A stretch of 64,000 nucleotides of DNA from the UHGV virus genome UHGV-0348865. The stretch is one strand, 5' to 3'. The position numbers were made by a program, and so were the translations under genes. The stretch comes from a virus. How positions within the stretch are numbered: position 1 is the stretch's first letter; the number at the start of each line of letters is the position of its first letter. Positions 21,226 to 31,419 of this stretch are shown here, one piece after another. Below the pieces are notes generated by a model. It worked only from the letters and a program-made list of their open reading frames with translations, searched no databases and was not told where the DNA came from.

Positions 21226-21253
21226 TTGACAGTCTTTTCCTTTATTATATAGT
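21226..21253 (+). promoter_or_regulatory. sigma70-type promoter (TTGACA-16 nt-TATAGT) upstream of first early ORF
   Basis: consensus -35 at 21226-21231 and near-consensus -10 at 21248-21253. Confidence 0.55.
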
Positions 21254-22253: not shown

Positions 22254-22625
22254 TTGGCTATGTGGTTTATTAAATTCGTCGTTAAAACGGTTGTAGGCTT
22301 CTTTCTGGTTGTTCTCCTGTTAGGTGTCCTGCTATCGGCTATGGGTAGTGTAAAGGCTGCAACGTTCTCCCCTGCTACGGTTGACGGTTTACAGTGCACC
22401 TATTTGATTGAGAATTATGACACTGGTAAACAGTCACCTAAAGTTATTATTTTGCATGTAAATGATTTCGATCATGTGCAATCATTTGATAAAACTATTC
22501 AACTGATGAATGAGTCCACTGGCAAACAAGTCATGATTGATCATCTGATGCGCTCATCCCTAACCTTGTTTGATGAGTCTATGAATGAAGTTGCATCCGG
22601 TAACGGTCAATGTGTAAATCCATAG
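22254..22625 (+). CDS. membrane-anchored early protein
   Basis: 123-aa ORF with N-terminal transmembrane segment. Confidence 0.4.
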   Translation: MAMWFIKFVVKTVVGFFLVVLLLGVLLSAMGSVKAATFSPATVDGLQCTYLIENYDTGKQSPKVIILHVNDFDHVQSFDKTIQLMNESTGKQVMIDHLMRSSLTLFDESMNEVASGNGQCVNP

Positions 22626-23012
22626 GCTTAATCTTTCTCCTGTATTGTGCCGTGGTCATGCCTATGGTCATAATCTATCTGATGCTCTAAATCCTTCCTG
22701 TAAGCCTCCTAGTGAGGCTTTTCTCTTTTCTAAGGTGATTGTATGCCTTACTCCCTTTTAGTTCGCTGTAGTGCGTTTTAGACCGCTCATTATTTCTTTA
22801 CAAGCCGTTTTCTATGATGTACCGCGTGCGTGCGCTCTTTTACCTTCCTATAGTGAAAAAGTTTAAAATATTTTGCTTTACCCTATTGTATCCCTCACTG
22901 GTTAATGTATACTTCATTTCATCGGGTACGATGTAAAACATACAAGGCAAGGAAACTTGCCCCGCTCTTTAAAAATCAGGCAAGAAAGTGAAAATATTCT
23001 TAAAAAGAGTAT

Positions 23013-23040
23013 TGACACCAGAAAAAGCCTGATATATAGT
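23013..23040 (+). promoter_or_regulatory. sigma70-type promoter P1 (TTGACA-16-TATAGT) with A-rich upstream tract
   Basis: consensus hexamers and spacing. Confidence 0.6.
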
Positions 23041-23156
23041 GAGCATAAGTCAGCGATGACGTGAAATATCCCGCTCTTTAAAAACTTATCATCTTGCCCT
23101 TTCGCATAGATTCAAGCGAGATAAGGGAACGGAATAAAAGAAGATGATAAAAAGAG

Positions 23157-23186
23157 TTGACAAGCTAACACGGTGTGTTAAGCTAC
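23157..23186 (+). promoter_or_regulatory. candidate sigma70-type promoter P2 (TTGACA, weak -10 TAAGCT)
   Basis: consensus -35 with A-rich upstream tract; -10 imperfect. Confidence 0.4.
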
Positions 23187-23314
23187 AAATGCAGTAACCG
23201 CTCTTTAAAAATATGAATCATAAGTTAAGCCTCACCGCTTAATCTTCAATCAAATATAGCTGATTGATATATCCTCCCAATAAGGGGAGCGACGAAAAAA
23301 GATTAAAAAAGTGG

Positions 23315-23343
23315 TTGACAGCTAAAACAGCATGATTCATAAT
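23315..23343 (+). promoter_or_regulatory. sigma70-type promoter P3 (TTGACA-17-CATAAT)
   Basis: consensus hexamers and spacing. Confidence 0.55.
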
Positions 23344-24267
23344 GAGCACTCACTAAGCAAATCATCGCTTCAGTGAAAAGCGTAACAACGGCTAACAGTT
23401 GCATAGTGTGAGAAAGCACACTGATAGATTTACCGCTCTTTAATAATTTAAACATTCTCCTATATCGGTTGAATATGTTAGATGATAATAACCATCGGAT
23501 AACATACCAGATAAAACGGCGTAAAACTCCCTAAATTATCAGGGTAAACAGGTTTACATTCCCTTACTGGAAACGTCACCACTGATAAACGGATTCATTG
23601 AGTGCACGCAAAGACTTAAGCTAATCGCCCACGGTTAAGGGTAGCGGCGGCTATCGCTAACAAGGCGCTACAGTGAAAGAAGTTAATCAGGGTAGGCAAG
23701 TCCGAAGAATTAACGCCCAATTGAGGGCGGCGGGGAGTGGTTAAAAAGTGGCAAATTGCTATTTAACAATAAGGTTTAGTGTGAACGTTTACGATGTGAA
23801 CGGCTTGAGATTCATCACAAGATGAAAGTACATAGTCGGTTTATGTAGTAAACTTGCCGAAAGATATAAAACGTCAGAACATTAGACGGTCAATGACTCT
23901 TTCACAATAGCATCCCGTTGTGGGCGATGGCTAGTGATTGAGAGTTGATACAAAAGGATAGGCGAGAGCGAAAGCAAAGTAGACGATATTGCCGACGGTT
24001 ACAATAAACGTAACTAATTAGAGTCGGACGCACTGCCTTATTGTGATGATTGATCATCGCTATCAGGTCGGCTTGGTTTATAGCGACTAATTAAAGATAC
24101 CAGATGAAACATCACAGATAAGGGGGCGGCAAGGTTAACTCCTGATAAGACCGCCCCGCTTATCAATAATTACTTAACAATGAGTGATTATCGATAAGTC
24201 AATAGTGACTTAAAAAGCTCATAGCGAGCGGGGGCAATAGTGCCCTTACAATTGAAAGGTGAATATC

Positions 24268-25167
24268 ATGGCTAAAGTTTTTAATCTGGTAAAAGAATCT
24301 GGTTTTAACGCACTGGCTAACAACATTCGTAGCAATAACGCGGCGATTAAACAAGATGTTTCTAATTTTCTGTTAGGGCACTTGCAGCACTTCCGCAGTA
24401 ACGGTAAAAAGCTGGACGTATTGCAGGCGGCGGTTGACTTTCTGTTAACTGAACGTTTTCGTGATATGGATGTGATCGCCACTGCAATTACTTTCTTAAC
24501 TCCCATCAAGTTTAACACCGATGCGGCAAACGGTCGTAAAAAGTGGATTAATCTGGAAGGTGAGGCGAAAGCGAAAGAAGATGCGAAAGAAGCGCAAATT
24601 AAGGCCAAAATGGAACAAAACCGCGCTCGCTGGTCAAATGCTTTCGAAAACTTTGCTTTAGGCCGTGAAATTGAAGTCGATAACCCTAACTTTTACAAGG
24701 GTTGTAATGACAACGTGGCGGCACACCTGCAAATTCCGGCGAAAAACAAGGAAGATTTTAATCAGGATATTTACGCTTTAGTTGAACGCTTGAATGCAAT
24801 CCGTATTGAAGCCAAATTACTGGCTGATGAGCGCAACGGCGCAACTAGCGATAACACTATCGCCCTGAGTGAAGAAGTTGGGAAGGTTAAAAAGTCCTTT
24901 GATTCACTCATCAAGAAAGTCACGGCCTCAACGGTAGCGATCTCGGATGATTATCTGATGAACGCATCAAGCAAGGAATTAGAATCACTCGATTCATACG
25001 CTGATGAAATGGAAAAGACTGTTGCAGCTATGCAGGAGAAGTTAGAAAGTCTGCGCGGTCGTATCTCTTCAACGGTTGCTACCCGTACCGAACAAGCTGC
25101 GAAGGCAGAAGAAGAAGAAGTATTGCGTAAAGCGGCTGAGATTATGGCGGCACGTCAGGCGGCATAA
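24268..25167 (+). CDS. hypothetical early protein (helical, Lys/Glu-rich)
   Basis: ATG at 24268 with GAAAGGTG ribosome-binding site; first sizeable ORF after the promoter array. Confidence 0.5.
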   Translation: MAKVFNLVKESGFNALANNIRSNNAAIKQDVSNFLLGHLQHFRSNGKKLDVLQAAVDFLLTERFRDMDVIATAITFLTPIKFNTDAANGRKKWINLEGEAKAKEDAKEAQIKAKMEQNRARWSNAFENFALGREIEVDNPNFYKGCNDNVAAHLQIPAKNKEDFNQDIYALVERLNAIRIEAKLLADERNGATSDNTIALSEEVGKVKKSFDSLIKKVTASTVAISDDYLMNASSKELESLDSYADEMEKTVAAMQEKLESLRGRISSTVATRTEQAAKAEEEEVLRKAAEIMAARQAA

Positions 25168-25190
25168 GTAAGACAATATAAATAAACATA

Positions 25191-25226
25191 AGGCGCTATC
25201 TTAACGGGTAGCGCCTTTTCTTTTAT
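25191..25226 (+). terminator. rho-independent terminator
   Basis: AGGCGCTA...TAGCGCCT hairpin followed by TTTCTTTTAT. Confidence 0.6.
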
Positions 25227-25269
25227 CAGTGCATTGATTCAGTGCATTAATCAAAGAATTTAATCAAAG

Positions 25270-25993: not shown

Positions 25994-26437
25994 GTGGCTA
26001 AATCTAAAATCAGCATGAAGGGCGGGCGTTGTTTTGCTATCTCTGAACTGGAGAAAGAGAAGCCAAAGGCAACTAATCACGTTAGCAAGCGTAGTCTAAA
26101 ACGTCGTGCTGCAAAAGCTGAGGCTGAATCCCATGTTCCTTCCAGTGTGGCAAAACGTATAGGCCATCGTGTCCATCGGGCTGATGCGTTGTTGTTAGCT
26201 GATCATAAACGCTCTTTGTTAAAGAGCGGGGGAGCTAAAACAGAAGAGGAGAAGAAGTTAGAAATCTTCTGTAATGGTCGCACCCGTGGTAAACAGAAGT
26301 TTAAAGGTAGTACGAAAGACCCGCAGGCTTTCCCTAAGACAAGTCAGTGTGCGCCTGATGTATTCTACGCAGATAGTAAACACAAGTGGGGTGTTGAGAA
26401 ATACATTGACCCCATTAAAGAGGCGAGGGTAAAATGA
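25994..26437 (+). CDS. basic hypothetical protein
   Basis: 147-aa Lys/Arg-rich ORF. Confidence 0.4.
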   Translation: MAKSKISMKGGRCFAISELEKEKPKATNHVSKRSLKRRAAKAEAESHVPSSVAKRIGHRVHRADALLLADHKRSLLKSGGAKTEEEKKLEIFCNGRTRGKQKFKGSTKDPQAFPKTSQCAPDVFYADSKHKWGVEKYIDPIKEARVK

Positions 26438-31340: not shown

Positions 31341-31419
31341 GGGGGTGTACCTCACCCGTCTTCTAAACGGGCGTTAATCGAGTAATTGGAGTATGCAGGT
31401 TCGAGTCCTGTCTCCCCCT
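31341..31419 (+). ncRNA. tRNA-like element with canonical T-arm; possible tRNA (anticodon-like loop CTTCTAA would give UCU/Arg) but D-arm not resolved by eye
   Basis: T-arm GCAGG-TTCGAGT-CCTGT; 7-bp acceptor-like pairing GGGGGTG/CTCCCCC; flanked by 10-nt inverted repeat AGAGTTCTTA/TAAGAACTCT. Confidence 0.4.

Follow-up and report, generated by a model that had tools for sequence, protein, structure and literature searches.

Among the described systems closest to the locus analysed here is the leader of the ribosomal RNA (rrn) operons of Escherichia coli, in which tandem strong promoters (P1 and P2, P1 with an UP element) are followed by a boxB hairpin, by boxA, the NusB/S10 site of rRNA antitermination, and by boxC. 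In rrnB, the order is GCCGCTGAGAAAAAGCGAAGCGGC (boxB hairpin), AC, TGCTCTTTAACAA (boxA) and TTTATCAGAC...TGTGTGGG (boxC), the hairpin lying 2 nucleotides (nt) upstream of boxA. The rrn complex forms on boxB-boxA-boxC, of which boxB is dispensable, and a leader-trailer helix is needed for rRNA maturation (PMC10250234). Here, we study UHGV virus genome UHGV-0348865, a stretch of 64,000 nt (hereafter, the window) that runs opposite to NC_010324 and comes from a phiEco32-like podophage (Kuravirus, Gordonclarkvirinae), and more specifically its spacer free of open reading frames (ORFs) at 22626-24258, just upstream of the homologue of phi32_124 (hereafter, gp124), in which an earlier note had described promoters, a repeated 14-mer and a long leader. 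This spacer carries promoter-boxA modules, a covarying boxB-like hairpin before the fourth boxA copy, a large conserved fold on the + strand and a constant linkage to gp124. We consider it probable that the main early transcription unit of this phiEco32-like phage begins with the spacer, which would be built like a bacterial rRNA operon and use rrn-type antitermination.

The likeness to the rrn leader concerns the tandem strong sigma-70 promoters with A-rich upstream tracts, the hairpin followed by a boxA with a UUU core (CGCUCUUUAA(A/C/U)AA in the phage, UGCUCUUUAACAA in rrnB), an identity that continues through UUUAUCA in some phage copies, and the downstream RNA, which is long, untranslated and highly structured, with long-range helices and possibly a 5'-3' closing helix beside boxA. 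In contrast to rrn, the phage has no boxC, and it has one boxA per promoter (three to five in total) instead of one shared leader copy and one spacer copy, while its product is an RNA of ~830 nt devoid of rRNA similarity that runs straight into a protein-coding gene; the recruitment of Nus factors is a step that we infer for the phage.

Lambdoid nut sites, in which boxA precedes a boxB hairpin and N protein reads the site together with Nus factors, also place a boxA on a phage transcript near an early promoter, and the boxA of lambda nutL (CGCUCUUAAAAAUUAA) is close to the phage CGCUCUUUAAAAAU. However, the phage core has the rrn-type third U, and the rrnG boxA binds NusB:NusE ~10-fold tighter than nutR/nutL (PMC2800207). 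Moreover, the phage has no conserved boxB-type hairpin at a fixed distance 3' of boxA, the hairpins found there differing in sequence, distance and shape between module types, and it is a virulent and not a lambdoid phage, in which no gene resembling N was identified, though none was searched for. The CRISPR loci and suhB are alike in having a consensus boxA just after a promoter, ahead of a long untranslated RNA, and in countering Rho (PMC7665894, PMC5725501), but those are chromosomal host loci with a single boxA, whereas the phage has an array of promoter-boxA modules and, compared with CRISPR, a downstream RNA made of one large folded domain and not of a repeat array.

As for the RNA itself, GOLLD, ROOL, OLE and HEARO are comparable in spanning several hundred nt with many covarying helices, in being phage-borne for GOLLD and ROOL, and in a biochemical role that is likewise unassigned. 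Unlike them, the phage RNA belongs to virulent coliphages, where it invariably forms the 5' leader of one gene and follows boxA, and it has no sequence or structure match in Rfam 15, even at an E-value of at most 10. Finally, the put RNA of HK022 is a cis-acting phage RNA located just 3' of early promoters, by which polymerase is made termination-resistant, but put acts directly on RNA polymerase through two stem-loops without Nus factors, whereas the phage repeat is a boxA, presumably single-stranded. We know of no similarity between the phage element and put.

Results

The repeated 14-mer matches boxA

The 14-mer CCGCTCTTTAA(A/T)AA reported by the earlier note is present in four exact copies, starting at 22962, 23071, 23198 and 23433, all on the + strand and with spacings of 109, 127 and 235, and its 13-mer core has no further exact copy in the 64 kb. 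Judged from its sequence, CGCTCTTTAA(A/T)AA is boxA, the site of NusB/S10: all four copies match perfectly the gamma-proteobacterial/enterobacterial consensus GYTCTTTAANA (PMC5725501), for which the window holds 6 matches against 0.55 expected, a number reached by 0 of 100 shuffles. The promoters, boxA copies and associated elements of the array are as follows (transcription start sites are predicted throughout).

22903-22911 (+): exact match to the consensus of the phage sigma factor gp36, TAATGTATA, ~50 nt upstream of boxA copy 1
22946-22961 (+): hairpin GGCAAG-GAAA-CTTGCC in boxB-like position, abutting boxA copy 1 on its 5' side
22962-22975 (+): boxA copy 1, CCGCTCTTTAAAAA, core GCTCTTTAAAA at 22964-22974 (consensus match)
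22987-23040 (+): P1, A-rich UP-like tract, -35 TTGACA at 23012-23017, 17-bp spacer, -10 TATAGT at 23035-23040 (scan 11/12)
23071-23084 (+): boxA copy 2, at ~+25 from the predicted P1 start
23132-23184 (+): P2, A-rich tract, -35 TTGACA at 23157-23162, 16-bp spacer, -10 TAAGCT at 23179-23184
23198-23211 (+): boxA copy 3, at ~+8 to +10 from the predicted P2 start, followed by two covarying hairpins
23286-23343 (+): P3, A-rich tract, -35 TTGACA at 23315-23320, 17-bp spacer, -10 CATAAT at 23338-23343 (scan 11/12)
23404-23423 (+): boxB-like hairpin UAGUGUG-AGAAAG-CACACUG, 9 nt upstream of boxA copy 4
23433-23446 (+): boxA copy 4, CCGCTCTTTAATAA, at ~+84 from the predicted P3 start, at the junction of two helices closing the folded RNA

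Promoters and boxA were mapped in 19 relatives of three genera and in 10 metagenomic relatives in which gp124 is 50-70% identical. Over 29 related loci (285 kb), 106 boxA matches lie on the transcribed strand and 4 on the other, and these four all correspond to one homologous hairpin inside another gene. The information profile of 85 distinct copies confines conservation to CGCTCTTTAAnAAT, while the flanks vary freely, which argues that selection acts on the motif itself. Copies differ by A, C or T at the N of the consensus and by C or T at the base preceding G, and several of them read CGCTCTTTAACAA, i.e., 12 of 13 positions identical to the E. coli rrnB TGCTCTTTAACAA. When the phage region is aligned locally to the E. 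coli rrnB leader, copy 2 with its flank (GCTCTTTAAAAACTTATCA) comes out best (17/19 positions), a result that by itself is just modestly above shuffles. When metagenomes were scanned with the 19-mer GCTCTTTAAYAATTTAAAC (copy 4 and its 3' flank), most of the 81 matches were genuine rrn leaders: 43 are followed by a boxC-like GTGTGGG (...TGTGTGGGCACTCG), 11 by the 5' end of 16S and 6 are phage-like, many matches sitting at rrn-type contig breaks. A literature search, not extending to Savalia 2008 and Pavlova 2012, retrieved no paper linking boxA to phiEco32-like phages, and the assignment appears new.

The hairpin behind the four minus-strand matches is a perfect one, CGCTCTTTGTTAAAGAGCG, located in the window at 26210-26228 inside a gp120-like ORF and kept in 3 other loci; its minus-strand reading, CGCTCTTTAACAA, is a 12/13 match to the rrn boxA.

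Each boxA follows a promoter

The three promoters facing right, which the earlier note had read as a strong early array, stand as described: TTGACA occurs at 23012, 23157 and 23315, an A-rich tract precedes each of the three, and two of them score 11/12. This promoter array is already known from the literature, since the spacer that separates the corresponding pair of genes holds three sigma-70 promoters in SU10, as it does in phiEco32 (PMC4281155). P1 is kept in relatives, and P3 holds an invariant position across all of them, about -945 from gp124. P2, the spacer of which ends in TGT (TG at -15/-14), is weaker in this phage, with a -10 TAAGCT where relatives have TAGAAT.

In this phage, the array combines the three sigma-70 promoters and their UP-like A-tracts with one gp36-type motif ahead, and each module consists of a strong promoter and a boxA 10-90 nt downstream on the transcript, two modules also having a hairpin 5' of boxA. 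Every mapped relative, including the group with gp124 50-70% identical, has two to five such modules, with boxA copies 10-150 nt downstream of TTGACA-16/17/18-TAnnnT promoters on the transcribed strand. The number of modules varies by insertions and deletions, but the last one is fixed, its boxA lying 817-971 nt before gp124. A small ORF follows the first boxA in some relatives (1275-1589 in metagenomic locus L033; SU7_114 in L009).

The gp36 motif TAATGTATA has 5 exact copies in the 64 kb and is found at the present site in 4 of the 19 relatives, the equivalent module of phiEco32 having a sigma-70 promoter instead. The gp36 consensus is tAATGTAtA, with a start site 6-8 bp downstream (PMC8948821), and the published gp36 promoters of phiEco32 precede genes 6, 13, 26, 40, 58 and 68, none of them preceding gene 124. 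The copy at 22903-22911 is thus a candidate middle/late promoter feeding the leader unit, and transcription of the leader may, in this phage, extend to middle or late infection. As for the short non-coding transcripts that the earlier note had envisaged, nothing supports them, the terminator scan giving no + strand terminator-like site between 22720 and 25190.

Hairpins around boxA

The hairpin preceding copy 4 (23404-23423) shows covariation at 3 of its 7 pairs, with UA, CG and AU at one pair and GC and AU at another, and distant relatives have a hairpin of different sequence at this place. More generally, the 34-nt stretches 5' of the boxA copies fold at -6.1 kcal/mol and their shuffles at -3.3, even if copy 3 is too near its start site for an upstream boxB hairpin. 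Around copy 1, the inverted repeat CTTGCC (22956)...GGCAAG (22979) noticed earlier does exist; relatives have GGCTAG or GGCTGG in place of GGCAAG, and copy 1 can be enclosed in this way in this phage only, for which reason the repeat was set aside as a conserved feature.

Two further hairpins lie between copy 3 and P3 (23211-23275) and are kept by compensatory changes in relatives (TTAAGC-CTCACC-GCTTAA, and CAATCA...TGATTG, which becomes CAACCC...GGGTTG or TTAATC...GATTAA), and the inter-module RNAs thus seem to be structured too. Moreover, AUCAGGC, just 3' of copy 1 (22976-22983), is complementary to GCCUGAU in the P1 spacer (23027-23034), a pairing that recurs in most relatives without covariation and by which transcripts from upstream could fold across the UP/-35 region of P1.

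A large conserved RNA behind the last boxA

The region downstream of copy 4 had been described in the earlier note as ~800 nt of untranslated sequence and a long structured leader, in a stretch free of ORFs, all of which agrees with our results. Between 22625 and the next gene (GTG at 24259), the longest ORF is at most 51 amino acids (aa) on either strand, and none of at least 30 aa starts after 22957 on the + strand of the spacer, while the distance from copy 4 to the ATG of gp124 amounts to 821 nt (23447-24267). The stretch is also preserved beyond chance: the 2.1 kb around it match 98 phage records at 76-94% identity, 84 of which cover at least 80% of the stretch. A hidden coding gene was rejected, given the stops in all frames and a substitution pattern that is that of paired RNA. 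The small ORFs annotated here by some records were dismissed as well, their position and strand being inconsistent between records, most of which annotate none, and so was an origin in host sequence or a prophage element, as none of 5,426 complete E. coli genomes matched the leader in blastn.

To describe the fold, 17 relatives were aligned over positions 23300-24275 (86% mean identity). The RNAalifold consensus contains 250 pairs in 40 helices, of which 74 pairs are changed on both sides with pairing kept, against 8-11 in slid controls; 98.6% of the cells are paired, against 34-46% in the same controls, and 0 of 500 shuffles reach the observed values. The + strand folds at -253.5 kcal/mol and its complement at -173.4, with covariation terms of 23.3 and 12.0, respectively, and the z-score of the single-sequence minimum free energy is -8.9. 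According to these predictions, it is strongly supported that the leader (about 23350-24260), which measures ~830 nt between the last boxA and the ribosome-binding site of gp124, forms a large conserved structured RNA on the transcribed strand, with the following parts.

23447-24246 (+): structured RNA body (predicted fold)
23447-23460 / 23732-23745 (+): covarying long-range helix closing domain I
23766-23783 / 24029-24044 (+): helix closing domain II (predicted fold)
24045-24246 (+): 3' domain, a series of hairpins (predicted fold)
23624-23632 (+): 5' strand of a long-range helix outside the nested fold, AUCGCCCAC, predicted to pair with 23920-23928
23920-23928 (+): 3' strand of the same helix, GUGGGCGAU, predicted to pair with 23624-23632
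24254-24270 (+): Shine-Dalgarno AAAGGTG and ATG (24268) of gp124, the GGUGAAU of which pairs with AUUUACC (23428-23434) in RNAalifold

Within the body, the long-range helix 23575-23605 / 23665-23697 covaries, as do all six pairs of 23853-23858 / 23961-23966. The helix outside the nested fold (23624-23632 / 23920-23928) may be either a pseudoknot or an alternative pairing. The sole Kuravirus-group sequences differing in it, NC-B (AUCGCCUAC/GUAGGCGAU) and TH42 (AUCACCUAC/GUAGGUGAU), are both exactly compensatory, and distant relatives keep the pairing, both L033 (ACGGCCUAC/GUAGGUUGU, its 5' strand read by hand from the alignment) and L035 (also worked out by hand).

A covariance model of the 3' domain (24043-24251) finds one full-length match directly upstream of gp124 in 10 of 10 distant loci (E-values from 2e-41 to 8e-8), with no other match in the 64-kb window. 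In the distant-relative alignment, which was itself fitted to the covariance model, 50 of the 57 pairs have compensatory changes. With the model of the 5' domain, recovery is clear for the 70%-identity group and weak for the 50%-identity one. At the nucleotide level, the conservation of the leader equals or exceeds that of the flanking genes (in the comparison with SU7, 90.5% for the leader and 76% for gp124). Searched with Rfam 15, positions 22500-24400 give nothing at the gathering score, and matches at an E-value of at most 10 are chance-level (at most 21 bits).

Copy 4 is mostly unpaired in the consensus fold, with two of its nucleotides drawn into the predicted closing helix. As both strands of the AUUUACC/GGUGAAU pairing are nearly invariant, this helix is beyond a covariation test, and it is not evident in distant relatives. 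Two other candidates were abandoned: a likeness of the 3' end of the leader to the 5' end of 16S, a post hoc comparison with a shuffle p of ~0.04 that was given no weight, and two TACCAGAT(A/G)AAA motifs complementary to codons 5-8 of gp124, which do not co-vary in relatives. The BASEL description of the subfamily mentions no non-coding RNA, our literature search found no Kuravirus transcriptome study, and the large leader RNA appears new.

Genomic context and relatives

The ORF-free stretch separates the homologues of phi32_125 (22254-22625) and phi32_124 (24259/24268-25167); its equivalent in phiEco32 is 72787-74730 (1.94 kb), and it is left unannotated in most deposited genomes. Its neighbourhood consists of the following features.

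22254-22625 (+): upstream ORF, phi32_125 homologue, 123 aa, small protein of an early operon
22702-22730 (+): intrinsic terminator of the preceding small early operon, AAGCCTCCTAGTGAGGCTT then a T-tract (terminator scan)
24268-25167 (+): gp124 homologue, 299 aa, first gene 3' of the leader, to which it is invariably linked; likely true ATG at 24268, GTG at 24259
25190-25227 (+): strong intrinsic terminator directly 3' of gp124, 12-bp stem then a T-tract (terminator scan)

Terminators are annotated at the equivalent of 22702-22730 in SU10 and SU7, the SU10 paper describing one after the upstream gene (PMC4281155), and SU7 also has one annotated at the place of 25190-25227, which here bounds a minimal unit composed of the promoters and boxA, the RNA and gp124. 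The gp124 homologue has no Pfam family and no sequence match in PDB, and its PHROG carries no function label. The 22254-22625 protein is called "terminase" in many records through phrog_13168, a label that looks like an annotation artefact, since the real large terminase is elsewhere (phi32_7); its Pfam match is weak and YobH-like. Upstream, a fourth near-consensus promoter (21226-21253, + strand, TTGACA-16-TATAGT) heads the first small early operon. Further downstream, Rfam reports a tRNA at 31341-31419 (+) with 33.2 bits (gathering score 29), whereas ARAGORN finds none anywhere in the window.

In six of the metagenomic relatives (L026, L028, L029, L030, L036 and L037; gp124 50-70% identical), gp124 is preceded by a gene-free region of ~3 kb that directly abuts a divergently transcribed terminase arm, without an equivalent of the gp128-125 operon. 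In Salmonella phage 7-11 (L039, 88864-89916), ~1 kb of non-coding sequence separates the right end from gp151 and holds the two validated early promoters of that phage. It was rejected as a carrier of the RNA, because its right end has no boxA consensus, gp151 is not homologous to gp124 and the covariance search (model R1; 3' domain) gives no match in 7-11. The authors of PMC8948821 call the antitermination strategy of 7-11 undefined.

Discussion

In the mechanism that we favour, host NusB-S10 would bind boxA on the nascent RNA and, with NusA, NusG and SuhB, would convert RNA polymerase into an rrn-type antitermination complex, which would resist Rho on untranslated RNA, elongate faster and chaperone the co-transcriptional folding of the long-range helices. 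The phage would thereby make and fold its long RNA and carry transcription into gp124, and possibly into early genes beyond. There are precedents in the CRISPR transcripts, long and untranslated, which boxA guards from Rho (PMC7665894), and in the rrn complex itself; in the latter respect, the predicted closing helix between AUUUACC and the Shine-Dalgarno sequence may recall the leader-trailer arrangement of rrn, a parallel that is unproven.

Several observations weigh against this mechanism. No boxC-like GU-rich element (UGUGUGGG), present in E. coli rrnB, is found 3' of the phage boxA copies, copy 3 starts just ~8-10 nt from the predicted P2 start, there is no boxA downstream of the first early promoter (21226), and 7-11, a more distant relative, is without the boxA consensus at its early promoters (right end). 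Moreover, the leader is rich in G, poor in C (GC skew up to +0.23) and heavily base-paired, which would make it a poor Rho loading substrate by itself, so that the main benefit may lie elsewhere than in protection from Rho. It is also uncertain whether transcription reads through into later genes, owing to the terminator 3' of gp124 and to the mainly anti-Rho character of the rrn-type complex. Finally, Nus binding, Rho sensitivity and transcript ends are all properties that we infer for this phage.

Other explanations bear either on the repeats or on the folded RNA. If the 14-mers were DNA sites controlling the promoter array, whether operators for a phage early protein or a host regulator, as the earlier note had suggested, or origin iterons, their repetition, their clustering among promoters and their perfect conservation would be accounted for, and directly repeated asymmetric sites do exist as iterons. 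Such sites are nevertheless hard to reconcile with a strand bias of 106 to 4 (the four all at one unrelated hairpin), with a location 3' of the start sites at a variable 10-150 nt, and not over the -35/-10, and with the lack of dyad symmetry, while an exact match to the host boxA, an RNA element, and a 3' flank matching true rrn leaders are not predicted by a DNA-site model; hence, the operator proposal finds no support, and DNA sites are to us the least probable of the explanations considered. The boxA RNA might instead be a decoy titrating NusB/S10/SuhB from the host rrn operons and adding to host shut-off. In 2012, Pavlova et al. reportedly observed a shut-off of host transcription during phiEco32 infection. 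The three to five boxA copies per genome, behind near-consensus promoters with UP-like tracts, would suit a decoy, as would their rrn-type UUU core, since NusB:NusE binds the rrnG boxA with a Kd of 5-8 nM and the lambda nut boxA with one of 80-90 nM (PMC2800207). Yet one boxA per transcript would be enough, without a conserved structure of 830 nt behind it, and Nus complexes on boxA travel with the polymerase, which limits sequestration to transcribing complexes. A decoy is improbable in our eyes; being compatible with rrn-type antitermination, it may also hold beside it.

Regarding the folded RNA, a transcription-activated replication origin, at which a G-rich structured transcript would form an RNA-DNA hybrid primer, as for ColE1 RNA II or the promoter-linked origins of T7 and T4, would make sense of strong promoters followed by a long non-coding G-rich transcript (positive GC skew) with conserved structure, and the accessible literature gives no identified replication origin for this phage family. 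However, we saw neither an AT-rich unwinding element nor DnaA boxes or iterons downstream, the coding genes that follow have a GC skew at least as positive, and boxA-modified complexes suppress, rather than favour, stalled R-loop-prone transcription, which leaves an origin very improbable. A leader acting only in cis, either by sequestering the ribosome-binding site (RBS) to time or limit gp124 or through hairpins for RNase III/E processing and stabilisation, deserves more credit, even if we remain doubtful of it. RNAalifold indeed closes the whole domain by AUUUACC (23428-23434) with GGUGAAU at the Shine-Dalgarno sequence, TH42 and Bas88 change a G.U of this helix to A-U, and the RNA is always directly upstream of gp124; furthermore, in the case of E. 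coli suhB, Nus factors at a boxA of the 5' untranslated region repress translation (PMC5725501). On the other hand, ~800 nt, 40 helices and a covarying predicted pseudoknot far exceed the needs of RBS sequestration, the closing helix does not vary and is not apparent in distant relatives, and the nucleotide conservation of the RNA exceeds that of gp124 in some comparisons. Cis leader, Nus decoy and origin pre-primer are all compatible with rrn-type antitermination and do not exclude it. A bolder idea, possible but to be held tentatively, is that the ~830-nt RNA is more than a leader, being a stand-alone functional RNA (scaffold, decoy or catalyst) produced by a "pseudo-rRNA operon" across a subfamily of virulent coliphages: the phage would have copied the promoters and the boxB/boxA of host rRNA so that the rrn complex transcribes its RNA at a high rate and chaperones its long-range folding, as for 16S rRNA.

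Gordonclarkvirinae phages are common, used in therapy studies and poorly understood, and their early transcription has so far been described just in terms of "sigma-70 promoters". Arrays of boxA offer a testable answer to how processive early transcription might be achieved through host Nus factors without an N-like protein, and they add virulent phages to a short list of boxA targets other than rRNA. Few large RNAs have dozens of covarying helices and a pseudoknot, and those that do have mostly proved to matter biochemically; there is a substantial chance that this leader RNA is a new class of functional RNA. It sits in easily manipulated E. coli phages, including BASEL members that infect K-12 with restored O-antigen, so deletion, compensatory mutagenesis, probing and structure determination are feasible, and it would provide a natural system in which to study how the rrn antitermination complex chaperones an RNA that is not ribosomal. 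Should it prove to be a stand-alone RNA, it would represent a new class of large structured RNA in an E. coli system amenable to experiment, and the first one known from a phage that hijacks the machine transcribing and folding rRNA to produce it.

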